In this document: positions 3,750 to 18,139 of the stretch, piece by piece
How the letters are laid out: every line of letters begins with the position of its first letter
Numbering within the stretch: the stretch's first letter is position 1
Source of the DNA: Planctomycetota bacterium
GTDB lineage: Bacteria > Planctomycetota > UBA1135 > UBA2386
Assembly: GCA_046290465.1 (NCBI GenBank)
Contig: JBKAGP010000001.1
Span: 5,856,001 to 5,920,000 of the forward strand
Reading direction: 5' to 3'
DNA: 64,000 nucleotides
Translations under genes and position numbers: made by a program
Notes under the pieces: generated by a model
Seen by the model: only the letters and a program-made list of their open reading frames with translations
Database searches by the model: none
What the model was told of the DNA's origin: nothing

Positions 3750-4124
3750 ATGGAAAGAACCGTTCTGATCATCGAAGACGAGAAGCTGATCATCGTCTCC
3801 ACGCAGATGGTGCTCGAGGCGGCAGGATTCCGCGTCGAGTCCGCGATGAACGGCGAGGACGGCATCTCGAAGGCGCGCACGCAGTCGCCCGACCTGATCC
3901 TGCTCGACATCATGATGCCGGGCATCGACGGCTGGGAGACGCTGACGCGCCTCAAGCGGGACGCCGAGACCTCGAACATCCCGGTGGTGATCTTCACGGC
4001 GCGCGAGCACTCGCGCGGCCACCAGAAGAGCGCCGAGATGGGCGCCGCGGACTACTTCCGCAAGCCGTTCGAGCCCGACGAGCTGATCGAGCTGGTCGAG
4101 AAGCACTGCGGCCAGCAGGCCTGA
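3750..4124 (+). CDS. Single-domain response regulator (CheY-like)
   Basis: IIEDE, PDLILLDIMMPGIDG, FTA and KPF motifs. Confidence 0.95.
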   Translation: MERTVLIIEDEKLIIVSTQMVLEAAGFRVESAMNGEDGISKARTQSPDLILLDIMMPGIDGWETLTRLKRDAETSNIPVVIFTAREHSRGHQKSAEMGAADYFRKPFEPDELIELVEKHCGQQA

Positions 4125-4159
4125 ACCCGTTCGCGCCGCTTCAGGCGCCCCGTTCCGTC

Positions 4160-5149
4160 ATGCAGCTCGGCGTCGTATCGCTGTGGTCCCTGCTGGAGGC
4201 GTGCCGCGCCGGCAGTGAGGAGGAGCAGCGCGAGGCCGCGGCGACGGCCGCCATGGTGGTGCAAGACCACGTCGGCGAGCGTTCGCTGACGCTGGAGTTG
4301 CGCGACTCCGTGCTCGTCATCGACGACTTCCCGGCCGTCAGCGGGGTCGACACGTTCGCCGCGACCCACGGCCTGCTCGGCTTCCTGCGCGACGCCGGGG
4401 TGCAGTGGGTGCGGTTTGCGCGGGACGTCGACGCCGACGCGCTGCGCGCCTGGGCCGCGCACGTGGTCGTTGGCGACGCACCCACGGCGTGGCCGGCCGG
4501 CGTCGAGGTGCGGCTGCGCTGTGAGCCGACCTCGACAGATCTGGTCCGGCCGCAGGCGCCGCGCGCGGCGATCGACGTGCCCGACTCCCGCCTGCGTTCG
4601 GTGTTCCTGCAGCACCGCCTGATCGCGGGTCTGCCGCGGATCGCCGGCGTCGACGCGGCGACCGCCAAGCTGGTGATCCAGGGCGTGGTCGATCGCCTGC
4701 TGCAGGTCGAAGGTGGGCTCGAGCCGTTGATGCTGCTGCAGGAGGACGAGTCGGTGCTGCAGCGCAGCACGGCGGTCGCGGTGCTGACCGTGGTGATCGC
4801 GCGCTGCGCCGGCTGGCCGCTCGAGCAGCTCGCCGACGTCGGTGCGGCCGGTCTGTTGCACGACCTCGGCAGCGTGCTCGACGAGCGCGCGCCGGGAACC
4901 GCCGCGTTCCGATGGCTGCTGGACTGCGGCGACGACGACTTCTGGCTGCGCAGCGCACTCTGCGCCCGCCGTTGGCGCGACGGCGAGCAGGCGATGGCCG
5001 ACCCGGCCGGGCCGCTCGCGATCATCGCGATCGTGCGGCTGGCGGTCGCCGCACACGGAGGCGGCGCGGCCGCGATCGACGCGGTGGGCGAGCGCGGCGA
5101 CGTGCCGCCGGCGCTCGTCGCGATCGCGCGCCAGGCGATCGCCGCCTGA
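4160..5149 (+). CDS. Degenerate HD-domain (HD-GYP-like) protein
   Basis: AGLLHDLG motif preceded by RSTAVAVL; no GYP motif. Confidence 0.6.
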   Translation: MQLGVVSLWSLLEACRAGSEEEQREAAATAAMVVQDHVGERSLTLELRDSVLVIDDFPAVSGVDTFAATHGLLGFLRDAGVQWVRFARDVDADALRAWAAHVVVGDAPTAWPAGVEVRLRCEPTSTDLVRPQAPRAAIDVPDSRLRSVFLQHRLIAGLPRIAGVDAATAKLVIQGVVDRLLQVEGGLEPLMLLQEDESVLQRSTAVAVLTVVIARCAGWPLEQLADVGAAGLLHDLGSVLDERAPGTAAFRWLLDCGDDDFWLRSALCARRWRDGEQAMADPAGPLAIIAIVRLAVAAHGGGAAAIDAVGERGDVPPALVAIARQAIAA

Positions 5150-6438: not shown

Positions 6439-7190
6439 GCGTGGCCCTCCGCCCGGCCGGACGCAGTCATCTTGCGGTCGTTCTCAATCAGCTTCTCGAC
6501 CTCGCCGTCCTTCAGCCACAGCGTGCGGTCGGCGCGTTCGGCGACCGCCGGGTTGTGCGTGACCATCACGATCGTGACGCCGTCGGGGCGCAGGTCGTCG
6601 AACAGGTCGAGGATCTCGCTCTCGGTGTTGCTGTCGAGGTTGCCGGTCGCCTCGTCGGCGAGCAGGAACAGCGGGTCGTTCATCAGCGCGCGTGCGATCG
6701 CGACGCGCTGCTGCTGGCCGCCGGACAGCTCGAGCGGCTTGTGCTCGAGGCGCTGGCCGAGGCCGACGCGGTCGGCCAGGTACTCGGCCTTCTTGCGCGA
6801 TTCGGGGCCCACGCGTCCCTGGTAGAACAGCGGCACCTCGAGGTTCTCGAGCACCGTCAGCTGCGGGATCAGGTTGAACGACTGGAAGATGAAGCCGATC
6901 TCGGTGCCGCGCACGTTGGAGAGCGCGTCGTCGTTGAGCTTGCTGACGTCGCGGCCACCGACGCGATACTCGCCGGTGGTGGGGCGGTCGAGGCAGCCGA
7001 GCAGGTTGAGCATGGTGCTCTTGCCGGAGCCCGAACGGCCCATGATCGTCAGGTAGTCACCGCGGTGGACCTGCATCGACACGCCGTTGAGGGCGCGCAC
7101 GACGTTGTCGCCCATCTTGTAGTGGCGGTGGACGTCGACGAACTCGGCGATGATCTCGCTGCTGTTGCTGGCGGGGTCGCTCACGAGCAC
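6435..7190 (-). CDS. MacB/LolD-type ABC transporter ATP-binding protein
   Basis: Walker A GRSGSGKST, signature LSGGQQQRV, LLADEATGNLD. Confidence 0.95.
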   Translation of the reverse strand: MLVSDPASNSSEIIAEFVDVHRHYKMGDNVVRALNGVSMQVHRGDYLTIMGRSGSGKSTMLNLLGCLDRPTTGEYRVGGRDVSKLNDDALSNVRGTEIGFIFQSFNLIPQLTVLENLEVPLFYQGRVGPESRKKAEYLADRVGLGQRLEHKPLELSGGQQQRVAIARALMNDPLFLLADEATGNLDSNTESEILDLFDDLRPDGVTIVMVTHNPAVAERADRTLWLKDGEVEKLIENDRKMTASGRAEGHA

Positions 7191-9289
7191 TACTCTCCGC
7201 CTCGCCGGTCGCCGCCACCGCCCGGGCCGCCGCCGCCGGGGCCACGGCCACCGCGCCCGCCGCGGCTGCCCATCGCCTTGCGCATCGCATCGCTGAGCTT
7301 CTGCGCCTCGTCGAGCTTGCCGTTGTCGATCGCGCTGATGATCGCCTTGAGCTTCTGCGTCGACTTCTCGAGCTGCTCACCGCTGAGGTAGTTGCTCATG
7401 TTGCCGATCGTGCTCACCAGGCGTGCCTTGGCCTCGCCGAGCTCCTCGGCCGACATCTCCGGGTACTTCTTGCGCGGGCCGCCGCGACGGCTGCCGCCGC
7501 GCTCCCGGCCGCCCCGCTGGCCGTCGCCGCGCTCGGTCTCCTTGGTGAGCTGGTCGCCGCTCGGCTTCTTGACCGGCGCCGGCTCCGGCGCCGCGGGCTG
7601 GTCGAACTTCGGGTCGGCCTGGCCGCCCGGCGGCGTGCGGTAGATCTGGTCGCCTTCGGTGAGGCCCTCTTCGACGACGACCTTCTCCTGGTTGTTGGCG
7701 CCGACCTGGATCGCGACGGCGACCGGGCCGTCGGCCGTCTCCTTCCAGACGTAGTTGACGGCGCGGTCGCGCCGCACCGCCTGGATCGGGATCGTCAGCA
7801 CGTTCGGCACCGTGTCGACGGTGATCGTGGCGGCGGCCTTCATGCCGGCCTTCAGCGACTCGTCGCGGTTGATGCCGTCGAGCATCACCTCGGTGGTGTA
7901 GACCTTCTTGTCGTTGCCGGACCAGCGGCTGGCCGAGTCGGCGACCGGTGCGACGTAGGTCACGCGGCCGGTCAGGATCTCGTTGGGGCGGACCTCGGCG
8001 CTGATGTGCGCGGGCATGCCGCGACGCACCTTCTCGACCATCGCCTCCTGCACCTTGATCTTGCACTTCAGCCGGCTGTTGTCCGGCAGGATGATGATCG
8101 TCTGGTACTGGCGCACGCTGGTGCCCTCCTCGACCGGTTCGCTGTCGCCGCGGCCGCGGGACACCTTCGAGTAGACCACCAGGCCCTCGCCGGGCGAGTA
8201 GATCACCGAGTTGTCGATCTGGCGGTTGAGCGTCGACAGACGGTCGCTCGCGATCTCGAACTCCTTCTGCTTGGCGTCGATGTCGAACTGCGAGTTCTTG
8301 CGCTCGGCGTCGTTCTTCGCGGTGACGCGTGCGACCTCGAGTTCGGCGTTCTCGAGGTTCTGCCGCATCTCGATCTTGTCGCGCTGCAGCGTGTAGTTGA
8401 TCAGCAGCTCGAGGTCGTTCCACGCGATCGTGACCTTCGACGCCTGGCTCTGGAACGCCAGTACGTCGCGCTCGAGCTCGTTGCGGGTGATGAACTGCTT
8501 GCTGGCGAGGCGGCGGCTGTGGGCGGCCGTGTCCTCCTTGACCTTCAGGTCCGCCATCGCGAGGCGGATCGTGTCGGCCTGCTGCAGGATCTTGTTGGCC
8601 ATCTCGCCCATGTCGCGCTGCAGCGGGTCGCCCGCTTCGCCGTCGACGGTCAGCAGCGTGCGCACCTTGGGGATCAGGCCGGCGTAGTTCTGCGGATGCA
8701 CGTGCGCGACCAGCTGCGAGCCCTCGGTCGCCGCGGCGATGGTCGTGCCCTGGCCCTCCTTCGGCTCCGGCGGATTCACCAGCTCCTCGAGGCGCTTGAC
8801 CATGTCGGCGTTCTTGCCCTCGGAGCCCTGGCCGTCCTTGGCGCCCAGCAGCTTCTGCAGCTCCATCGCGGAGATCTGGCGCTGCGACTCGGCCGTGTTC
8901 AGGTTGGCTTGCAGCTCCTTCTCGAGGATCTCCTGCGCGGTGCGCGCCTGCTCGAGCGCGTTGCGCGCCTTCTCGACCGAGATCTCCTGCGTGGCGCGCT
9001 TCTCGACCAGCTCGGTGACGTCGAGCTCGACCAGCTTGTCGCCCTTCTTGACCAGGGTGCCTTCGGGGATCAGGCTCAGGATCGTGGCGCTGCCTTCGAT
9101 CTGGGACTTGACCTCGACCTCGTTGACGGCGACGAGCTCGCCGCCCTCCTTGACGTTGATCGGCAGGTCTTCGCGGCTCACCTTGTAGAGGTTGACGCGG
9201 TTGTCGGACTTCGTCTCGTTCCCGCCGCACGCCGCGAGCATCGCGGCGGTGGTCAGGAGGAAGGCGACGTGGTTCGTGCGGGAACGCAT
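7190..9289 (-). CDS. Periplasmic adaptor (HlyD/MacA-like) lipoprotein with long coiled coil and Gly/Arg-rich tail
   Basis: Lipobox LAAC; lipoyl-like halves EGTLVKKGDKLVEL and IYSPGEGLV; lies in an operon with the ABC genes and TolC. Confidence 0.88.
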   Translation of the reverse strand: MRSRTNHVAFLLTTAAMLAACGGNETKSDNRVNLYKVSREDLPINVKEGGELVAVNEVEVKSQIEGSATILSLIPEGTLVKKGDKLVELDVTELVEKRATQEISVEKARNALEQARTAQEILEKELQANLNTAESQRQISAMELQKLLGAKDGQGSEGKNADMVKRLEELVNPPEPKEGQGTTIAAATEGSQLVAHVHPQNYAGLIPKVRTLLTVDGEAGDPLQRDMGEMANKILQQADTIRLAMADLKVKEDTAAHSRRLASKQFITRNELERDVLAFQSQASKVTIAWNDLELLINYTLQRDKIEMRQNLENAELEVARVTAKNDAERKNSQFDIDAKQKEFEIASDRLSTLNRQIDNSVIYSPGEGLVVYSKVSRGRGDSEPVEEGTSVRQYQTIIILPDNSRLKCKIKVQEAMVEKVRRGMPAHISAEVRPNEILTGRVTYVAPVADSASRWSGNDKKVYTTEVMLDGINRDESLKAGMKAAATITVDTVPNVLTIPIQAVRRDRAVNYVWKETADGPVAVAIQVGANNQEKVVVEEGLTEGDQIYRTPPGGQADPKFDQPAAPEPAPVKKPSGDQLTKETERGDGQRGGRERGGSRRGGPRKKYPEMSAEELGEAKARLVSTIGNMSNYLSGEQLEKSTQKLKAIISAIDNGKLDEAQKLSDAMRKAMGSRGGRGGRGPGGGGPGGGGDRRGGE

Positions 9290-9291
9290 GT

Positions 9292-10896
9292 TTATTCGGC
9301 GCTGGCCGGCATCGGCAGGGTCAGGTCGAACCGCAGCCCCTGGGGGGAGAGGCGCACGGCTTCGAGGTCGTTCATGAGTTGCAGGCGCGCGATCGCGTAA
9401 TCGACGATCGCGGCGTTGCGGTTGAGTTGGGCGCTGAGCAGCGAATCCTGCGCGTCGAGCTTGTCGAGCGCGGGCACGCGGCCGGCGGCGTAGAGGTCGG
9501 TGGTCGCTTCGACGCGCTGCTCGGCGAGGTCGACCGCAACCGTCTGGATCTCGAAGCTGTCGAGCGCCGCCTGGATGTTGCGCAGCGAACGGCGCACGTT
9601 GGCGGTCAGCGTGTCCTCGGCCTGTTCGCGCGCCCGCAGCGTGCGGTCGAACGTGATCAGCTGGCTGCGGTAGGCGTTGCGCAGCGGGATGCGGTCGAGG
9701 AACAGGTTGAGGTCGACGCCGGCCGACCAGTCGATCTGCGACCAGTCGAGGTTGAGGCCAGCGCCTTCTTCGGAGGGCACCGAGATCGCGGCGGTGAAGT
9801 CGAGGCCGAAGTTGAGCGCGTTCTCGGCGATCAGCACGCGGCGGCCGACGTCGGCGACCTCGTCGATGGTCGTCTGGTAGTCGTAGCGGCGACGCAGCGC
9901 CAGGCGCACGGCCGTGTCCTGGTCGAGGTCGACCTCCTGCACGCCCTGGTCGACCAGGCGCTTCAGCTCCTCGGGGTCGAGGGTGATCTGCGCGGTCACC
10001 GGCAGGCCGAGCGTCAGCTTGAAGCTGTCGAGCGCGTTCTGCAGGCGGTTGGCGGAGCTGACCCGCTGGGCGTCGGCGCTGTACTCACTCTGCTGCGCGC
10101 GACCGAGGTCGACGATCGTGCGGCGGCCGGCGTTGTAGAGCTCCTCGATCTGTTGGCGCGACAGCCGGAAGCTGCTGTAGTTGGCCTCGACGTTGTTGAG
10201 GTCGGCCATCTGCTGCACGACGTTCCAGTAGTCGGCGACCAGGTCGATCGCGAACTGCGAACGGAAGCGCTCGAAGTCGCGGATCGCGTAGATGACGTTG
10301 CGCTCGGCCTGGGTCAGCGGCTCGCGCGCGATGTGGCGGCCGGCGCCGCGCAGCAGCGGTTGGGTGACGGTCAGGTTGAGGATCGAGCCACCGTCGAACT
10401 GGCCGCCGTTGAGCACGCCGCGCAGGAACGTCTGCACGAAGCTGGTCACGATCGACGTGCCGGCCGGGGTGTCGGCCGAGGCGGCCAGGTCGTCGCTCAG
10501 CGAGACGTCCGCGGCGGTGTCCGAGGTGCCGTCGACGTTGGCGCTGAAGCCGCCGCCGAAGCGCACGCGGAAATCGTTGAGCGTCGTCGTCAGGCTGAGC
10601 GCCGCCAGGTAGAGGGTCTCCTTCTGGCGCTGGAACTCACGGCTGTTCTCGGCGGCGACGTCGAGCGCGTCGGCGAGCGACAGCTGGATCGGTTCGCGGG
10701 TGGTCAGCAGGCGCCGGCGCAGCGTGTCGACCGGCCGCTCGACGACGAACTCGCGCTGTTCGCCGAGCACCTGCTCGGTGGCCTTCTCGAGCACGCCGTA
10801 GACGGCGCGGTCGGCCCACTCCCGGTTGCCTTCGGGAGAGTAGCAGGAGGCCACCGCGATGACGGTGACGAACGGGAGGATGCGGGATGCGTGCAA
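9292..10896 (-). CDS. TolC-family outer membrane efflux lipoprotein
   Basis: Lipobox-like VASC; LSLADALDVAAENSREFQ and YNAGR / YAAGR repeats; start (TTG 10896) is an estimate. Confidence 0.85.
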   Translation of the reverse strand: MHASRILPFVTVIAVASCYSPEGNREWADRAVYGVLEKATEQVLGEQREFVVERPVDTLRRRLLTTREPIQLSLADALDVAAENSREFQRQKETLYLAALSLTTTLNDFRVRFGGGFSANVDGTSDTAADVSLSDDLAASADTPAGTSIVTSFVQTFLRGVLNGGQFDGGSILNLTVTQPLLRGAGRHIAREPLTQAERNVIYAIRDFERFRSQFAIDLVADYWNVVQQMADLNNVEANYSSFRLSRQQIEELYNAGRRTIVDLGRAQQSEYSADAQRVSSANRLQNALDSFKLTLGLPVTAQITLDPEELKRLVDQGVQEVDLDQDTAVRLALRRRYDYQTTIDEVADVGRRVLIAENALNFGLDFTAAISVPSEEGAGLNLDWSQIDWSAGVDLNLFLDRIPLRNAYRSQLITFDRTLRAREQAEDTLTANVRRSLRNIQAALDSFEIQTVAVDLAEQRVEATTDLYAAGRVPALDKLDAQDSLLSAQLNRNAAIVDYAIARLQLMNDLEAVRLSPQGLRFDLTLPMPASAE

Positions 10897-11035
10897 GGTC
10901 AGGACAGGCTCGGCGAACGATCTTGGGACGACCGTAGTAGGTCTGGCCCACTGTTTTTTCTCCCCTCGCCGAGGTGTGTTACTACGATACGACGCGTTGC
11001 GAACCGGTCCGGGCGGGCCATGGAGCAGCGGGGGC

Positions 11036-11740
11036 ATGCTGAGCATCTTGATCACCGCGGGACCGACCCGCGAACACCTCGACGACGTTCGATTCCTGAG
11101 CAATGCAAGCTCGGGACGAATGGGCTGTGCGCTGGCCGAAGCGGCCATGGCAGCAGGCCATCGCGCCACGATCGTGCTCGGCCCGGTCGAGGTCACGCCG
11201 CCCGCCGGCGCCGCCGTCCGTTCGGTCACCTCCGCGCTCGAGATGCAGGCTGCCGCTGCGGACGTATTCGCGACATCCGACATCGTGATCGCCGCGGCGG
11301 CCGTCTCCGACTGGCGGCCGGTGGCGCGCGCTGCCGGCAAGCCGGCGCGCCAACCCGGCCGCATCACGGTCGAGTTCGAGCCCAACCCCGACATCGTCAA
11401 GGGCCTGGCTGCGAACAAGGGTGACCGGATCGTGTTCGGCTTCGCCCTCGAGTCGGTCTCCGCGGGCATGCCCGCGGCGATCGAACGCGGTCGTCGCAAG
11501 ATCGTCTCCAAGGGGCTGGATGCCGTGGTCGTGAACCTGCACGACACCATCGGCAGCGACCAGGCCGAGTTCGTGCTGTGCTACGCCGACGGGCGCGAGC
11601 AGCCGTTGCCTCGCTGTGACAAGCGCCAGGCGGCGGAACTGCTGGTGCGCGCCGCGGTCGAGGCGTGGCAGGCGCAGAACGGTTCCGAACCGGGTCGACC
11701 GAACGGGACCAGCAGTCCACCAGAGGACCTACTCAAGTGA
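11036..11740 (+). CDS. coaB: Phosphopantothenoylcysteine synthetase (stand-alone CoaB domain)
   Basis: LITAGPTREHLDDVRFLSNASSGRMG, AAAVSDW, NPDI and GFALE motifs; no CoaC domain. Confidence 0.9.
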   Translation: MLSILITAGPTREHLDDVRFLSNASSGRMGCALAEAAMAAGHRATIVLGPVEVTPPAGAAVRSVTSALEMQAAAADVFATSDIVIAAAAVSDWRPVARAAGKPARQPGRITVEFEPNPDIVKGLAANKGDRIVFGFALESVSAGMPAAIERGRRKIVSKGLDAVVVNLHDTIGSDQAEFVLCYADGREQPLPRCDKRQAAELLVRAAVEAWQAQNGSEPGRPNGTSSPPEDLLK

Positions 11741-14406
11741 GCAGAAAGAAGGACCACGAGGCCGAAGCGGCCCCGAAGCGCGGCACGCGCTTCGTCCCCA
11801 CCGAGGACGTGCCGCTGCCCGGCCTGTCGCCGCGCGCCCGCGAAGTGGTGGCGTTGGCGCTCTGCGGCGTCGCGCTCTACTCGATGCTGTGCCTGGCGAC
11901 GTTCCGGATGGCGGATCTCGACGGCGCGATCCCGACCGGCGGCATGCAGAACCTCGGCGGCTCGTTCGGCTACTACCTGGCGATCGGGTTCACGCGTGCG
12001 CTCGGGCTCGCCGGCTGGGTGCCGTTCCTGATGCTGCTGGCCTACGCGCTGCTGATGTTCCTCGGCCGCAGCTGCAGCCGCCTGACCATCAAGCTGCTCG
12101 GCATCGTCTGCTTCTCGGCGATGCTGGCGATCCTGTTCGCCGGCCACGACGGCCTCGCGGGCGTGCGAGACGCGACCCCGTACGGCGCCGGTGGCGTGTT
12201 CGGCTCGGTGGTCTCGCCCAAGCTCTACTCGGCCTTCGGCGGCACGGGCCGCGTGCTGATCCTGGTGTTCGGCGCGCTGGTGTCGCTGCTGATCGCGACC
12301 GAGTGGATGTTCTCCGAGCTGCTGCTGCGCGCCTACGCGGCGATCGAGCCGCCGGTGCGCCGCTGGTTCGGACGTGCGGTCGTCGCCGGCATCGGCGAGG
12401 TCGAAGAGCTCGAGGAGGAGGCCGAGGCCAAGCCGAAGCGTCGTCGTTCGCGCAAGAAGCCGGTCGCCGAGGAGGTCGAGGAGCCGGAGGAAGAGGTCGA
12501 GGAGGAAGAAGAAGAGGAAGAGGTCGAGGAAGAGGAGGAGGCCGAAGAAGCAGAGGAAGAAGAGGCCGAGGAGGAGGAAGAGGACGAGGAAGAGGCAGAT
12601 GAAGAAGAAGAGGAGGAGCCGGCGCCGAAGGCCCGCCGTTCGCGCAGTGGCCGCAAATCGCGCAAGGCGGCGGCAGAGGAGTCGGAGCCCGAGCCCGAGC
12701 CCGAGCCCGAACCGGAACCGCCCAAGCCCAAGCCGATCGTGATCGTGCGGCCGAAGCCGCGCAAAAAGCGCAAGAAGGTCGCGGCGCAGAGCACGCTGCC
12801 GTTCCAGGACTACCCGTTCCCGCCGATGGAGCTGTTCCAGGAGCCGCAGATGGGCGACCTCGGCGCGACCTCGGAGGTGCTCGAGAAGGGCGGTGCCGCG
12901 ATCGTCAACAAGCTCGCCAACTTCAAGATCGAGGCGCAGGTGGTGGCGGCGTCGGTCGGCCCGGCGGTCACCCAGTACGAGCTGCGGCTCGCCGAGAGCA
13001 TCCGCGTCAACAAGATCGTCGGCTTCGAATCGGACCTCGCGGCGGCGCTCAAGGCCTACTCGGTGCGCGTGGTCGCGCCGATCCCGGGCAAGGACACGGT
13101 CGGCGTCGAGGTTCCCAACGAGGAGCGCGAGAAGGTCTACATGCGCGACCTGCTCGACATGTTCGGCCGCGCCGACGACCATGCGATCCCGCTCTACCTC
13201 GGCAAGGACGTCGCCGGCAACCCGATCGTCGAGGACCTGGCGCGCATGCCGCACCTGCTGATCGCCGGCACCACCGGGTCCGGCAAGTCGGTCTGCATCA
13301 ACACGATCCTGCTGTCGGTGCTGATGACCCGCACGCCGCAGCAGGTCAAGCTGATCCTGGTCGACCCGAAGATGGTCGAACTGCAGGCCTACAAGAAGGT
13401 GCCGCACCTCTGCTGCGAGGTCGTCACCAACATGAAGAAGGCGCCGGGCGTGCTGCAGTGGGCCGTCGACGAAATGGAGAATCGCTACGCGATGCTGTCG
13501 GCCGCGGGCGTCAACCACATCAAGAACTACAACCGCCTCGGCGAGACCGAGCTGGCCAAGCGGCTCGGCCGCGATCCGGACCCGGACCGCGTGCACCTGA
13601 GCTACATCGTGATCGTCATCGACGAGTTCGCCGACCTGATGAACGTCGCCGCGAACGAGGTCGAGGACCTGATCCAGCGCCTCGCGCAGAAGTCGCGCGC
13701 CGTCGGCATGCACGTGATCCTGGCGACCCAGCGCCCGTCCAGCGACGTGATCACCGGCATCATCAAGGCCAACCTGCCGTGCCAGATCGCGTTCAAGGTC
13801 AACCGCCGCATCGATTCGCGCGTGATCCTCGACGTCAACGGCGCCGAGAAGCTGCTCGGCCACGGTGACATGCTCTACATGCCGCCGGCGGGCGGCGCGC
13901 TGCTGCGTGCGCAGGGCACGTTCGTCTCCGACGAGGAGCAGCACGCGGTCGTGAAGTACCTCGAGGACCAGGGCCAGCAGCCGGCGTTCAACCCGGAGCT
14001 GATGCAGCGCCAGTCGAGTTCGCGGCCGTCCTCGGCCGACAAGGACGAGCGCTACCACGAGGCCGTCGAGGTGATCGTTGGCCAGCAGCGCGGCTCGGCG
14101 ACGCTGCTGCAGCGGGCGCTGTCGGTCGGCTACACGCGGGCGACGCGCCTGCTGGAGCTGATGGAGGACGACGGCATCGTCGGTCCGTTCGTCGGCTCGA
14201 AGTCGCGCGAGGTGCTGCTGACGCTCGAGGAGTGGCACGCGCGCCGCGAGGCCGAGGAGCAGGCTGCCGACGACGACGAATACGAGTACGTCGAGGTCGA
14301 GGAGGGCGAGGAAGTGGAGGTCGCCGACGGCGACGACGTCGGCGAGGAGGTCGAGGCCGACGCCGGCGAGGCCGTGACGGATCCGCAAGACGACGAGCGC
14401 GATTGA
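11737..14406 (+). CDS. ftsK: DNA translocase FtsK
   Basis: N-terminal TM domain, acidic linker, MPHLLIAGTTGSGKS, IDEFADLM, ATQRPS and gamma domain; GTG overlaps the coaB stop. Confidence 0.96.
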   Translation: MSRKKDHEAEAAPKRGTRFVPTEDVPLPGLSPRAREVVALALCGVALYSMLCLATFRMADLDGAIPTGGMQNLGGSFGYYLAIGFTRALGLAGWVPFLMLLAYALLMFLGRSCSRLTIKLLGIVCFSAMLAILFAGHDGLAGVRDATPYGAGGVFGSVVSPKLYSAFGGTGRVLILVFGALVSLLIATEWMFSELLLRAYAAIEPPVRRWFGRAVVAGIGEVEELEEEAEAKPKRRRSRKKPVAEEVEEPEEEVEEEEEEEEVEEEEEAEEAEEEEAEEEEEDEEEADEEEEEEPAPKARRSRSGRKSRKAAAEESEPEPEPEPEPEPPKPKPIVIVRPKPRKKRKKVAAQSTLPFQDYPFPPMELFQEPQMGDLGATSEVLEKGGAAIVNKLANFKIEAQVVAASVGPAVTQYELRLAESIRVNKIVGFESDLAAALKAYSVRVVAPIPGKDTVGVEVPNEEREKVYMRDLLDMFGRADDHAIPLYLGKDVAGNPIVEDLARMPHLLIAGTTGSGKSVCINTILLSVLMTRTPQQVKLILVDPKMVELQAYKKVPHLCCEVVTNMKKAPGVLQWAVDEMENRYAMLSAAGVNHIKNYNRLGETELAKRLGRDPDPDRVHLSYIVIVIDEFADLMNVAANEVEDLIQRLAQKSRAVGMHVILATQRPSSDVITGIIKANLPCQIAFKVNRRIDSRVILDVNGAEKLLGHGDMLYMPPAGGALLRAQGTFVSDEEQHAVVKYLEDQGQQPAFNPELMQRQSSSRPSSADKDERYHEAVEVIVGQQRGSATLLQRALSVGYTRATRLLELMEDDGIVGPFVGSKSREVLLTLEEWHARREAEEQAADDDEYEYVEVEEGEEVEVADGDDVGEEVEADAGEAVTDPQDDERD

Positions 14407-14511
14407 TCTTCCCGGCCGCTACTGCTTGTGGGCCCGACCGGCGAGCAGTAGATTCTGTCGCGTAGCGTCCGGTGGTGTCGGACGTAGAGCGCAACTGCCC
14501 GGGAGGGGCAC

Positions 14512-16596
14512 ATGACTGTGAATACGCTGGGCTCTGAATCCCGGCTCGGAGGCGATTCGTTCGCGCCGGGCTCGTCGCGTGGCTCGCGCACCGTCGCGGA
14601 GTGGCTGTGGCCGTTCCTGGTCGGAGGCGTCGCGCTGTTCTCGATCTCCGCGCTGTTCTACTACCACTTCCACCGCGCGGAACTCGAACCACAGAGCTTC
14701 CTGCAGCAGGTATTCGCCGGCCTCTACGACACCTTCGGGTGGGCGCCGTCGGTGGTGTTCTTCCTGCTGGTGTTCGCCTGGTCGCTGATCTGGTTCGTGA
14801 CCGGCGTGCTGGAGAAGCCGGTCTCGCGCGTCGTGCGCCTGCTGGTGATGGCGGTCATGCTCGGGGTGTTCTTGAACCTCGGCGACGGCGGCGTCGTCTC
14901 CGAACCGCACAAGGGCGCGTTCGGTGCCTGGTTGGCCGGCCGGCTGGTCGGCGCGATCGGCTACGTGCCGAGCCTGGTGATGGTCTGGGTGACGACGTTC
15001 GCGTCGCTGCTGCTGGCCACCGACTGGTTCTTTAGCGAGTGGTTCGAGCGCTCGCGCAAGGCGGCGACGTTCGAGGTCGGCGTCGAGGAGCAGGTCACCG
15101 ACCACCTGCGCGGCCTGTCCGAGATCGCCAACCGTCCGGAATCGACCGAGGCCGGCGCGGCCAGCGCCGCCGTGACGATCGACGCCGGCGACGCGCCCGC
15201 AGACGGAGCCGCGGTCGGCGCCGACGAGCAACGGGACGACGATGGCCCGGAGCGACAGGACGCCGCCGGCGGGGATCCTGCCGAGCCCGAAGCGGCTGCC
15301 GAGCCGGTCGTGCACGTCGAGCGACGCCTCAGCTACGCCGAACGACGGCGCCTGCGCGCCGAGCGCGATGCCGCCCAGGCCGAGCCGCCGGTGCCGGTGC
15401 CGCGCCCCGACCCGCAGCCGGCAGAGGAGCCGTCGTCCCGCCCCGATCCGGAGCCGGCGGAGCTGGCGCGCGCGGTCGGCTCTGCCCTCGACGAGCTGGC
15501 CGAGAACGCACAGGCGGGCGGCGCTGCGGTGTCCGAGGACGAGCTCGCGGGGCTGTTCGGAGACGCGTCCGCAACGGCCGAGGACGACGACGACGTGGTG
15601 GTGGTCGCGCCGGAGCACGTCGAGGCCGAGGAGATCGAACTGGTCGACGAGGACCCGGACGAGGACGAGGACGCCGAGGCCGTCGACGACGACGAGATCG
15701 CGGCGGACGAGATCGCCGAGGAAGGCGACGACGAGTCCGAGGACGCCGAGCTGGGTGAGCTCGACGAGGACGACGAATCGGACGACGCCGACGAGGACGA
15801 CGACGAGGAAGAGGAAGAAGAAGAGGACGAGGACTACGGCGAGGAGGACGTCGACGAAGACGACGAGGAGTCGGCGGAGCTCGAGTCGGACGACGACGAG
15901 GTCGAGGACGAAGAACTCGAAGACGAAGAGTTCGAGGACGAGGAACTCGACGACGACGACGACGACGAAGAAGAAGAAGAAGAAGAAGAAGAAGAAGAAG
16001 AAGAAGAAGAAGAAGAAGAGGAAGAGGACGAGGACGAGGACGAGGACGAGGAAGGCGAGTACGCGGAGTACGACGAGGACGAGGAACTCGAGGAAGGCGA
16101 CGAGGAGGAGGACGAGTCCGACGCGGACGATGCCGACGACTCGGGCGATGACGAAGTCGAACTCGAGGCCCAGCTCGACGACGAGGAGGCCGACGACGAG
16201 GAGGCCGACGAAGACGAGTTCGAGGCCGATGAGGACGACGACGACGACTTCGTCGAGTCGACGGCCGACGCCCCGACCGAACCCAAGGAGACCGTCGTCG
16301 CGATCCCGCGTCCGGACGAGATGCCCGAGCCGGTCCAGCCGACCCCACCGGTGAGCCCGGCTGCCCGCGCCGAAGCCGAGCCGCAGCCCGAGCCGTCGGC
16401 CCCTGGCCGCCAGCAGAAGCTGTTCGGCGGCGGCGTCGACGAGGACCTGCTGGTCGAGGCCCGCGAACTGCTGCGTTCGGGCCGACGGCCGACCGCAGCG
16501 CTGCTGCAGCGCAAGCTGCGCATCGACTACGAACTGGCGCAGGACGTGATCCACGAGCTGGAGGCGCGCGGGCTGCTGGCGGAAGACGAGGCGTGA
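14512..16596 (+). CDS. FtsK-like protein: TM domain, very long acidic linker and gamma-like winged helix, with no ATPase motor
   Basis: LLATDWFFSE resembles LIATEWMFSE in the adjacent FtsK; C-terminal LLQRKLRIDYELAQDVIHELEARGLL is gamma-like; no Walker motifs. Confidence 0.8.
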   Translation: MTVNTLGSESRLGGDSFAPGSSRGSRTVAEWLWPFLVGGVALFSISALFYYHFHRAELEPQSFLQQVFAGLYDTFGWAPSVVFFLLVFAWSLIWFVTGVLEKPVSRVVRLLVMAVMLGVFLNLGDGGVVSEPHKGAFGAWLAGRLVGAIGYVPSLVMVWVTTFASLLLATDWFFSEWFERSRKAATFEVGVEEQVTDHLRGLSEIANRPESTEAGAASAAVTIDAGDAPADGAAVGADEQRDDDGPERQDAAGGDPAEPEAAAEPVVHVERRLSYAERRRLRAERDAAQAEPPVPVPRPDPQPAEEPSSRPDPEPAELARAVGSALDELAENAQAGGAAVSEDELAGLFGDASATAEDDDDVVVVAPEHVEAEEIELVDEDPDEDEDAEAVDDDEIAADEIAEEGDDESEDAELGELDEDDESDDADEDDDEEEEEEEDEDYGEEDVDEDDEESAELESDDDEVEDEELEDEEFEDEELDDDDDDEEEEEEEEEEEEEEEEEEEEDEDEDEDEEGEYAEYDEDEELEEGDEEEDESDADDADDSGDDEVELEAQLDDEEADDEEADEDEFEADEDDDDDFVESTADAPTEPKETVVAIPRPDEMPEPVQPTPPVSPAARAEAEPQPEPSAPGRQQKLFGGGVDEDLLVEARELLRSGRRPTAALLQRKLRIDYELAQDVIHELEARGLLAEDEA
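15949..16017 (+). repeat. (GAC)6(GAA)17 in-frame trinucleotide microsatellite
   Basis: Read directly; encodes a poly-Asp/poly-Glu run. Confidence 0.95.
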
Positions 16597-16704
16597 CCGC
16601 GCGCCGGCGCGCCCGGAATCCGGCCGCCGGGGTGCGAAAAGTGCGCGCGCATCCGATGCCTTCGGAGCGGCCTGCTGGTGGGGCTGCGCGTTCGTTCGTC
16701 CCCG

Positions 16705-16736
16705 CTTTCCCCAGGCTTGTCCACAGGGTGTCCACG
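16705..16736 (+). promoter_or_regulatory. Three co-oriented DnaA-box-like 9-mers upstream of dnaB
   Basis: CTTTCCCCA (16705), TTGTCCACA (16717) and GTGTCCACG (16728) compared with consensus TT(A/G)TCCACA. Confidence 0.6.
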
Positions 16737-16789
16737 GGTCGCAGCCTTGCGTCGGCGCGTGGGCACGGTAACTAGGACCGGCTCAGCGG

Positions 16790-18139
16790 ATGGTGGACTT
16801 CAAGCAGAACTTCGACGGCCGCGGCGTGCCGCAGAACCTCGACGCCGAGCGCTCGGTGCTCGGTGCGCTCCTGTTGCACACGGACGCCGTCGTCGACGTC
16901 ACGTTCCTCAAGCCCGACGACTTCTACCTGCCCAAGCACCAGCAGATCTTCCAGGCGCTGCTGACGGCCTACAACACGCGCACGGCGACCGACCCGATCG
17001 TCGTCGGCGAGGAACTCGACCGGCAGGGCAAGCTCGACGAGGTCGGCGGCCATGAGCAGCTGATGGACCTGATGGAAGGGGTCATCACGGCGGCGGGCGT
17101 CGTCTACCACGCCGAGATCGTGCGCGAGAAGGCGATCGCGCGCCGGCTGCTGGAGACCTGCCTCGACGTCGCGCGGCGCACCTACGACAACGAGAGCGAG
17201 GCCAAGGAGCTGCTCGACGAGGCGGAGCGCAAGATCTTCGAGATCTCGGGCATGGACAAGAGCGGCGACGCGGTCAGCATCGCCGACGTGCTGCAGCTGA
17301 CGTTCGAGAAGATCGACCGGCTGCGCGAGCGCGAGGGGCGCCTGACCGGCCACGCGACCGACTACTACGACTTCGACGACATGACCGGCGGCCTGCAGCC
17401 GGGCGAACTGGTGATCATCGCGGCGCGTCCGTCGATGGGAAAGACCACGTTCGCGCTCAACCTGACCGAGCGTGTCTCCAACCACGGCAAGGGCATCGCG
17501 TTCTTCTCGCTCGAGATGTCCAACCAGCAGGTCATCCAGAACATGCTCTGCTGCCGCTCGCAGATCGACGGTTCGGCGATGCGCAAGGGCCGGATCACCG
17601 ACCAGCAGTACAAGCGGCTGCAGGAGGAGGCGGCGAAGCTCTACGAGACGCCGATCTTCATCGACGATACGCCGGGCATCTCGATCACGCAGCTGCGCGC
17701 CAAGGCGCGCCGCCTGAAGCAGAAGCACGGCATCGACATGATCGTCGTGGACTACCTGCAGCTGATGACCGGCGGCGGCCGCTTCGAGAGCCGCCAGCAG
17801 GAGATCTCGGCGATCTCGCGTGGTCTGAAGAGCGTGGCGCGGGAGCTTTCCGTGCCGGTGTTGGCGCTGTCGCAGTTGAATCGTGACGTCGAGAACCGCG
17901 ATGATCACCGGCCGCGCATGAGTGACCTGCGCGAGTCCGGCGCGATCGAGCAGGACGCCGACGTGATCCTGCTGCTGCACCGTGACGACTACTTCAATCC
18001 GACCGAAGAGAACCGCGGCCTCGCCCAAGTCATCATCGCCAAACAGCGCAACGGCCCGACCGGTGAGGTCGCGCTGCGCTTCTTCCGCGAGTACATGCGA
18101 TTTGAGAACTACACGCGCAGAGCCGAGCCGATGCAGTAG
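16790..18139 (+). CDS. dnaB: Replicative DNA helicase
   Basis: AERSVLG, AARPSMGKT, FSLEM, VDYLQLM, SQLNR, SDLRESGAIEQDAD and KQRNGPTG. Confidence 0.98.
   Translation: MVDFKQNFDGRGVPQNLDAERSVLGALLLHTDAVVDVTFLKPDDFYLPKHQQIFQALLTAYNTRTATDPIVVGEELDRQGKLDEVGGHEQLMDLMEGVITAAGVVYHAEIVREKAIARRLLETCLDVARRTYDNESEAKELLDEAERKIFEISGMDKSGDAVSIADVLQLTFEKIDRLREREGRLTGHATDYYDFDDMTGGLQPGELVIIAARPSMGKTTFALNLTERVSNHGKGIAFFSLEMSNQQVIQNMLCCRSQIDGSAMRKGRITDQQYKRLQEEAAKLYETPIFIDDTPGISITQLRAKARRLKQKHGIDMIVVDYLQLMTGGGRFESRQQEISAISRGLKSVARELSVPVLALSQLNRDVENRDDHRPRMSDLRESGAIEQDADVILLLHRDDYFNPTEENRGLAQVIIAKQRNGPTGEVALRFFREYMRFENYTRRAEPMQ

Follow-up and report, generated by a model that had tools for sequence, protein, structure and literature searches.

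The window analysed here is the whole 64,000-nucleotide (nt) stretch of contig JBKAGP010000001.1 from the Planctomycetota bacterium assembly GCA_046290465.1, to which all positions refer, and it contains, directly downstream of ftsK, a gene for a second FtsK-like protein that lacks the motor. The two co-directional open reading frames (ORFs) at 11665–14406 (913 amino acids, aa) and 14512–16596 (694 aa) in the ORF listing bear out the earlier note's prediction of ftsK followed by a motorless paralogue, as do the Pfam domains and the absence of the motor; the start at 11737 proposed there falls inside the longest ftsK frame. Judged from its sequence, the paralogue is a real, conserved gene whose architecture is new within the FtsK family and apparently undescribed so far. 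With a probability of roughly 0.55, we consider it to be functional and to serve FtsK as a partner or adaptor at the membrane. The two genes and the parts of the paralogue are as follows.

11665..14406, + strand: ftsK, encoding the complete DNA translocase; the longest frame gives 913 aa, start uncertain
14512..16596, + strand: motorless FtsK paralogue; 694 aa, start MTVNTLG kept in homologues, 108 relatives
14584..15066, + strand: FtsK-type N-terminal membrane domain (residues ~25–185); conserved best within the family, with four long hydrophobic helices and LLATDWFFSE at the end
15079..15117, + strand: juxtamembrane motif GVExxVTDHLRGL (residues 190–202), predicted helix, from alignment and model
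15322..15366, + strand: basic helix motif RRLSYAERRRLRAER (residues 271–285) within the linker; R278 and R279 nearly invariant
15559..16299, + strand: hyper-acidic disordered linker (residues 350–596); imperfect GAC/GAG repeats, predicted local distance difference test (pLDDT) below 50
16303..16314, + strand: IPRP motif (residues 598–601); P599 and R600 invariant, I598 and P601 nearly so in 31 sequences
16438..16587, + strand: degenerate FtsK-gamma-like three-helix domain without wing (residues 643–692), from Pfam, Foldseek and model

Domain architecture of the paralogue

Homology of the N-terminal domain to that of FtsK is supported beyond chance by sequence comparison, although the curated FtsK_4TM threshold is not reached (residues 70–180, 11.8 bits, E = 0.19; Pfam cut-off 23.1). 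The segment LLATDWFFSE (residues 167–176) has its counterpart in LIATEWMFSE of FtsK (residues 209–218), and both strings are present as the earlier note had quoted them, together with DYELA and GYTRA. BLASTP aligned the whole membrane domain with that of FtsK at 27% identity over 181 columns (E = 2e-7), and an hhalign comparison of 31 paralogue N-domains with 28 FtsK N-domains of the same lineage gave a probability of 97.1% (E = 6.7e-11, 149 columns). In the AlphaFold2 (AF2) model, built with 31 sequences, residues ~28–185 form a helical membrane domain with block pLDDT values of 82–96. FtsK_4TM matches 12 of the 31 family members at E ≤ 0.1, and two distant members exceed both Pfam cut-offs (L018, gamma 83.8 and 4TM 48.9 bits; L013, gamma 64.7 and 4TM 32.4 bits), so the window protein is tied to the FtsK domains by transitivity. 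The Pfam check proposed earlier thus recovered FtsK_gamma and FtsK_4TM, both below their curated cut-offs. In a Foldseek search with the whole model, the membrane domain had no convincing match (from rank 10 onward the probability was at most 0.87 and the root-mean-square deviation (rmsd) at least 8 Å, except for two small winged-helix matches); we know of no solved structure of an FtsK N-domain. The membrane domain is followed by the juxtamembrane motif, in which G190, V191, E192, V195, T196 and L202 show no variation across 31 sequences and which lies in a model helix spanning residues 192–206.

No match to FtsK_alpha or FtsK_SpoIIIE was found in the paralogue by Pfam at E ≤ 1, both domains were absent from the ORFs of all 22 relatives scanned (7 + 15), and NCBIfam returned nothing meaningful for the paralogue. 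The product of the upstream ftsK gene matches four Pfam domains, all above cut-off (FtsK_4TM 70.3, FtsK_alpha 96.9, FtsK_SpoIIIE 200.7 and FtsK_gamma 77.2 bits), as well as the NCBIfam FtsK equivalog PRK10263 (E = 9e-127). Its Walker A motif GTTGSGKS is encoded at 13267–13290 and GYTRA (residues 822–826) at 14128–14142.

The linker that takes the place of the motor had been described as rich in Asp, Glu and Pro. The acidic character holds for residues 350–596, while Pro-rich parts of the paralogue are confined to residues 211–349 (12% Pro) and 597–642 (26% Pro). The 247 residues of the acidic tract comprise 29% Asp and 39% Glu (68% Asp plus Glu, D+E), Lys and Arg are absent, Glu occurs in runs of up to 20, and the net charge of the whole protein is −198. 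Tandem repeats of period 3, 6 and 12 were found at 15762–16247. The variant P0003 matches the window protein at 97% identity over residues 1–417, is 14 residues shorter in total and has insertions and deletions within the repeats of the acidic tract. Alignment of 31 sequences revealed short motifs that are kept in the otherwise variable linker, namely GVExxVTDHLRGL, RRxSYxERR, IPRP and RQQxLF. The basic motif RRLSYAERRRLRAER coincides with a model helix at residues 275–289 (pLDDT ~74), and similar RRxSYxERR motifs occur in other family members. It was also considered as a phylum-wide feature and rejected, as basic segments are found in 11 of 23 ORFs and at varying positions. The linker of the window's FtsK is itself rich in Glu (37%, encoded by GAGGAA repeats at 12487–12618), and FtsK carries an extension of ~60 residues past its gamma domain with 48% D+E (residues 853–913; 14221–14403); both are unusual for FtsK and parallel the acidity of the paralogue.

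The C-terminal end had been taken for a gamma-like winged helix; the gamma-like three-helix bundle is there, but the wing is missing. FtsK_gamma matches residues 643–692 with 24.8 bits (E = 1.8e-5, Pfam positions 3–52 of 63; gathering cut-off 30.6), the same domain scored 30.2 bits in the genome scan (relatives 29–84 bits), and all 31 family members match at E ≤ 0.1. The AF2 model contains helices at residues 644–655, 662–669 and 673–685 (pLDDT ~90 over 644–685) and no strands. Foldseek ranks 1–9 are all solved FtsK gamma structures (2ve8, 2j5p, 2ve9, 2j5o) with an rmsd of 1.1–2.3 Å over 45–55 columns, TM-scores by target of 0.61–0.73 and E-values of 0.3–0.66, the latter because the query is long; the fold is that of the gamma three-helix bundle. 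The protein ends in RGLLAEDEA, leaving Pfam gamma positions 53–63 unmatched, and because it stops 7 residues past the last helix, the wing, an element that contributes to DNA contact in gamma domains, is gone. Other families retain a wing, as do more distantly related members of the paralogue's own family.

Passages of PMC2680272 identify R1300, E1303 and E1306 of the recognition helix of E. coli FtsK as the residues that read the FtsK-orienting polar sequences (KOPS), and parts of PMC5052618 describe that XerD is contacted by the ends of helices 2 and 3 together with the connecting loop, through the DNA-binding surface. When aligned to 2j5p and 2ve8, the paralogue has D678, H681 and E684 at these three positions, so that two of the three KOPS-reading residues are changed, whereas the window's FtsK keeps R, E and E together with GYTRA. 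The paralogue reads IDYELAQDVIHELE in this region, with the turn residues G, N and R replaced and DYELA at residues 672–676. Recognition-helix positions vary within the family, while the hydrophobic core, the RR pair at 658–659 and LLQRKLRI are conserved; other families often keep R or K at the first KOPS position. Given the lost wing and the R-to-D and E-to-H changes, a KOPS reader or DNA tether is unlikely in the window's clade, and sequence-specific DNA reading by its gamma domain would not be expected; the canonical gamma forms of other families may act as KOPS-reading tethers. By this comparison the gamma domains of the phylum form a series from canonical to degenerate, with the window protein at the degenerate end.

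Conservation, genomic context and distribution

A search with residues 1–200 returned 108 proteins at E ≤ 0.001, with an N-domain identity of 40–89%. Nearly all of them are 400–713 aa long, come from Planctomycetota metagenome bins and carry a precomputed PF09397 assignment. The alignment of 31 relatives contains 34 invariant columns, and the end domain is conserved. Substitution rates were compared by the Nei-Gojobori method as ratios of nonsynonymous to synonymous change (dN/dS). Against the closest locus (L024) the values were 0.15 for the N-domain, 0.20 for gamma, 0.16 for the ftsK motor and 0.03 for dnaB; against L054 they were 0.28, 0.19, 0.11 and 0.10, respectively. The dN/dS check suggested earlier therefore places the end domains at 0.15–0.28. 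Distant pairs (0.5–1.0) were set aside because dS is unreliable at that distance and GC content. On these data we regard the paralogue as functional and under purifying selection, and as neither an artefact nor a decaying copy.

The paralogue is embedded in a recurrent gene order, of which the window contains the following further elements.

11033..11740, + strand: coaB-like gene, phosphopantothenate-cysteine ligase type, with DFP domain (Pfam DFP 172.2 bits); neighbour upstream of ftsK
14407..14511, + strand: spacer of 105 nt; Shine-Dalgarno-like GGGAGGGG at 14501–14508, read directly from the sequence
16790..18139, + strand: dnaB replicative helicase (Pfam DnaB_C 353 bits, DnaB 101.6 bits); downstream neighbour

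Among 47 loci of the window's lineage, all of them from uncultured bins, the ftsK motor lies just upstream of the paralogue in 40 (six of the seven misses have too little upstream sequence) and dnaB just downstream in 41 (five misses are contig ends and one is the distant locus L069). A coaB-like gene precedes ftsK in most of these loci, and the order coaB–ftsK–paralogue–dnaB recurs across the lineage. In the window, a BamA-like gene is also found downstream, with dnaB. The start of ftsK is uncertain because the GTG at 11665 overlaps the 3′ end of coaB. The spacer is closed by GGGAGGGG, five bases ahead of the ATG of the paralogue, and a scan of 11400–16900, spacer included, gave no terminator-like or promoter-like site on the + strand above shuffled expectation. 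From this arrangement, ftsK and the paralogue are probably in one transcript.

To follow the gene across the phylum, 401 Planctomycetota genomes of at least 90% completeness were scanned with PF09397, and matches were counted by hand from the table. A single-sequence search of 401 genomes of the phylum with the N-domain gave strong matches only in the window's own GTDB family (4/4). Weak matches of 24–30% identity were obtained in other families, and these loci read ftsK and then directly an ORF with a transmembrane (TM) domain, a linker and gamma, without motor. At least one gamma match was present in 395 of the 401 genomes and at least two in ~112: all 8 of the own family, 41 of the 45 in the rest of the order (the four exceptions all belong to family f3) and ~63 of 348 elsewhere. 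We inspected 20 genomes, one per family, comprising 19 with at least two gamma matches and an f3 control with one. In 14 of the 19, the second gamma followed the ftsK gamma on the same strand at a distance of 1.3–3.0 kb, and an ORF with TM and gamma only was found in 15 of these families, directly after ftsK in 14. In the remaining four (G027, G066, G014 and G051), the second gamma is something else. In G014 (C69:81323–82412), ftsK is followed by two small frames of 144 and 143 aa with gamma-like matches of 32.0 and 28.1 bits; this pair may be a different motorless arrangement. In G488 (C1:9077–9572), two equal-scoring gamma matches are separated by 310 bases, and the second falls in a frame of 123 aa; the arrangement has the appearance of a local duplication or of a repeat in the assembly at the ftsK end.

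In the 15 motorless ORFs, the C-terminal gamma is the only FtsK domain besides 4TM. Thirteen of these gammas score above the cut-off; for 4TM, five ORFs have a match at E ≤ 0.01 and two pass the cut-off. The motor is found in none, and nearly all ORFs have several hydrophobic N-terminal segments. A coaB-like gene precedes ftsK in 7 of the 15 loci, and dnaB was found in none within the ~2.5 kb downstream that were examined, so the conserved unit consists of ftsK and the motorless gene. The placement between ftsK and dnaB that had been pointed out earlier accordingly holds in the window's own lineage but not in the other families. In a tree of gamma domains, 20 motorless and 18 FtsK sequences are split on one branch (support 96/86, present in 94% of bootstrap trees), and one old duplication therefore fits better than repeated recent ones. 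The earlier note had allowed for an architecture confined to one assembly or for termini unlike those of FtsK; neither is the case, as the TM-plus-gamma arrangement recurs beside ftsK at many loci of related genomes and the termini are FtsK-like.

A search with the L018 protein, which is more canonical than that of the window, returned three TM-plus-gamma proteins (the query's own record included; one labelled Planctomycetes and two unlabelled) and one unlabelled gamma-only protein of 493 aa, otherwise full-length FtsKs. No motorless form outside the phylum was shown by this word-based search, which is too shallow to prove absence.

Public sequencing runs provide a further view of the locus. 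Nine runs contain at least half of the words sampled from 13600–15600, with labels of algae, coral, aquaculture, marine metagenomes or coded organisms; the labels suggest a marine, host-surface-associated lineage, and the source sample may be among these runs. Over this part, runs X16 and X17 (RNA label guessed) each have one identical 188-nt contig at 15082–15269, X18 (RNA label guessed) has two contigs at 15015–15436 with four differences each, and X19, the sole run recorded as RNA, has over the ftsK part mostly pieces less than 90% alike. No contig from these four RNA-recorded or RNA-guessed runs bridges the spacer, and contigs cannot show transcripts. Further upstream in the window, a gene on the − strand at 7190–9289 encodes an HlyD-type membrane-fusion protein with a long Gly/Arg-rich C-terminal tail (GGRGGRGPGGGGPGGGGDRRGGE), and a TolC-like outer membrane efflux gene at 9292–10893 adjoins it.

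Proposed role and alternative explanations

The genome consists of one contig of 6.59 Mb, and the PF09397 scan of it gave exactly two gamma matches, both within the ftsK–paralogue interval. No FtsZ match was found in this genome, in agreement with the earlier statement that FtsZ is missing and FtsK kept. In passages of PMC6952346, PMC12283558 and PMC5147048, FtsK is presented as the only classical division gene with phylum-wide conservation, and as apparently essential. According to parts of PMC12283558 and PMC6952346, no dcw gene other than ftsK is essential in P. limnophila, and FtsK organises the divisome of Chlamydia at an early stage; PMC12283558 locates, in the passage concerned, the division function of E. 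coli FtsK in its N-domain and linker. It is the combination of this N-domain role, the essentiality of FtsK, the lack of FtsZ and the strong conservation of the membrane domain and juxtamembrane helix that leads to the reading of the paralogue as a partner or adaptor.

Under the proposed scheme, an old duplication of ftsK would have given rise to a motorless paralogue that was kept directly downstream of ftsK. Its product, a four-helix membrane domain joined through a long disordered acidic tether to a small gamma-derived helical domain, would be taken to the membrane site of FtsK, a key division protein of the FtsZ-less PVC bacteria, by its membrane domain and would act there as a partner or adaptor of FtsK. 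The conserved membrane domain, the juxtamembrane helix and the short linker motifs are the candidate interaction surfaces, and the tethered gamma-like module may serve as a protein-binding or weakly DNA-binding end. The data establish the architecture, the homology, the conservation, the purifying selection and the linkage to ftsK; that the protein co-localizes with FtsK and serves division or segregation is what we infer.

Several observations weigh against the partner or adaptor reading. Contact between FtsK and the paralogue is a prediction; co-folding of the FtsK N-domain (residues 10–199) with the paralogue N-domain (22–210), run without controls, returned a score of 0.00 and a mark of 0.32, which gives no answer either way. 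The gene is not universal, with a single gamma in ~290 of the 401 genomes, and hence it is no core requirement of FtsZ-less division; P. limnophila is reported, in part of PMC6952346, to have a single FtsK homologue. Linkage to ftsK is also incomplete: in G119 (contigs C8 and C10) and G174 (C11), the paralogue does not adjoin ftsK and lies on another contig, and locus L041 (paralogue at 3775–5064) has 3.7 kb of upstream sequence without ftsK. The window protein itself scores below both curated Pfam cut-offs. The paralogue outpaces ftsK and dnaB, with an N-domain identity of 38–77% versus 74–91% for the ftsK motor in the same loci (ranges that leave out the distant L069, with 27% and 55%, respectively), and is thus under looser constraint. 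For the more distant pairs, dS approaches saturation and suffers from the bias of a 69% GC content. The gamma tree is based on 72 columns and has long branches; five rows (three motorless, two FtsK) had been dropped and two rows cut short.

A bolder version of the partner reading, which we regard as doubtful, would make the motorless FtsK a dedicated part of an FtsZ-independent division and segregation machine of non-budding Planctomycetota (Phycisphaerae-type and several uncultured classes), in which it would scaffold or nucleate an FtsK-based divisome via its membrane domain; its loss would coincide with the budding Planctomycetia, which would have only one FtsK homologue. It draws on four observations. 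Loci of a subgroup marked by GYFQAAK carry the submitter labels Phycisphaerales, Phycisphaeraceae and a Phycisphaera mikurensis metagenome-assembled genome; families made up of high-completeness genomes, such as f7 with 40 genomes, have a single gamma, except that one genome has an adjacent second copy of identical score; P. limnophila has the one FtsK mentioned above; and a passage of PMC5147048 assigns binary fission to Phycisphaerales and Brocadiales and budding to Planctomycetales. How the family codes match the named classes is something we infer.

The earlier note had proposed a membrane–DNA tether. Such a tether, or a motor-independent Xer activator, would use its gamma domain to bind KOPS-like DNA or XerD and so anchor the terminus or trigger dimer resolution without translocation. 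Gamma is indeed the KOPS-reading and XerD-activating module of FtsK, as parts of PMC2680272 and PMC5052618 describe, and the motorless proteins of other families keep a near-canonical winged gamma of 40–84 bits (GYTRAAR...GSREILL in L080; GYARATK...ARDVLV in L018). Two XerC/D-like recombinases (309 and 295 bits) are encoded in the genome, and the position of the TEKRKA motif, which PMC2965235 links, in the passage concerned, to XerD, is occupied by an invariant R659 and a frequent R658. Against this, the α2–α3 turn and recognition helix of the window protein read DYELAQDVIHE on the very surface that, according to parts of PMC5052618, contacts KOPS and XerD, with only E1306 kept. The wing is absent, the recognition helix is variable within the family and the net charge would repel DNA. 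A gamma domain without wing and with D and H at two of the three KOPS positions does not sustain the tether proposal, and we consider this explanation unlikely for the window protein.

Alternatively, the paralogue may regulate FtsK, as the earlier note had also suggested. As a negative regulator, it would join FtsK assemblies via the membrane domain common to both, so that each complex would contain fewer motors or hexamers would form later. Regulation of oligomeric ATPases by paralogues that have no motor or are inactive, and that poison the assembly, is a known principle, and a homologous membrane domain without motor, encoded in the same probable operon so that both proteins would be made together, is what such a regulator calls for. 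Mixed oligomers of the FtsK N-domain and the paralogue are hypothetical, however, the two N-domains are just ~22–27% identical, which is far for mixed assembly, and no reason is given for the conserved linker motifs and the gamma-like end. A regulator of this kind appears rather improbable to us.

The acidic tract had also been read as a DNA mimic. As a mimic or electrostatic spacer, poly-Asp/Glu would occupy DNA-binding proteins, perhaps the FtsK motor or gamma, or hold the nucleoid off the membrane. The composition of the tract, with no Lys or Arg, suits this idea, as do the net acidity (D+E minus K+R) of 22 of the 23 motorless ORFs listed and the D+E fractions of 0.24–0.36 in several unrelated families (L078, L080, L082, L084 and L014). 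Across the motorless families, however, D+E spans 0.11–0.36, with 0.11–0.16 in L071, L075, L077, L083, L085 and others, so that hyper-acidity is not conserved and the claim is weakened. The tract derives from slippage-prone triplet repeats and differs in length between 97%-identical variants, and since FtsK itself has an acidic linker and tail, acidic linkers look like a habit of the lineage rather than a special function; mimicry is accordingly a very weak candidate. Finally, a decaying duplicate, gene-call artefact or misassembly, to which the Pfam scores under the cut-offs and the low-complexity repeats in part of the coding sequence might point, is refuted by an intact frame with conserved start, motifs and end in more than 100 proteins from many assemblies, by conserved synteny, by dN/dS well under 1 at both end domains, by the one-contig genome and by the public runs that contain the stretch.

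Comparison with known systems

It is not yet understood how division proceeds in Planctomycetota, which lack FtsZ, and the paralogue is among very few concrete candidates for a partner in this process. It also constitutes a natural experiment on FtsK, in which the membrane and linker functions are split from the motor, and across families its gamma grades from canonical to the form without wing and with altered charge that the window's clade has. No description of a motorless TM-plus-gamma FtsK paralogue was found in the full-text literature searched, a corpus that leaves subscription journals and supplements outside its coverage, and the earlier suggestion that the protein might be undescribed stands to that extent. 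Papers on planctomycete division speak, in the passages concerned, of a single FtsK (PMC12283558, PMC6952346, PMC5147048). One relative is named 'DNA translocase FtsK 4TM domain-containing protein' at NCBI and most others 'hypothetical protein'. In the ESM Atlas, the window protein is placed with three clusters of Planctomycetota in which PF09397 is the only domain (scores 0.92–0.96).

With the FtsK/SpoIIIE translocases (E. coli, P. aeruginosa and the upstream ftsK of the window), the paralogue shares a four-helix membrane domain that ends in (L/I)ATxW(F/M)F, a long low-complexity linker and a C-terminal gamma-type helical domain. It differs from them in the absence of the alpha/beta RecA-type motor and of Walker A, in the wingless gamma and in the change of two of the three KOPS positions. 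The linker of E. coli FtsK is rich in Pro and Gln, whereas that of the paralogue is acidic. 4TM-only FtsK-like proteins form ESM Atlas clusters in Actinomycetota, Campylobacterota and Bacteroidota (151–423 aa, PF13491 only); like the paralogue they have an FtsK membrane domain without motor, but they have no gamma, and with scores of 0.81 or TM-scores below 0.7 the likeness is a lead only. Motorless FtsK membrane domains may thus exist in other phyla in another form. The isolated gamma domain of E. coli FtsK as Xer activator, seen in the XerD–gamma fusion (PDB 5DCF) that is reported in part of PMC5052618 to be self-activating, is alike in that a gamma-type fold occurs outside the motor; in the paralogue, the XerD-contacting turn is changed (IGYNRA to IDYELA) and the domain is tethered to the membrane.

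Further counterparts are the motorless TM-plus-gamma proteins of other Planctomycetota families, such as P0111, which carries the 4TM-domain name at NCBI, and the Phycisphaerae-labelled GYFQAAK group. They have the same architecture and the same place after ftsK, and their gamma domains lie on the same side of one tree branch as that of the window protein. They differ from it in that the wing is kept, R or K often stands at the position of R1300 and the Pfam cut-offs are passed, while their N-domains are 24–30% identical to that of the window protein and dnaB does not follow downstream.

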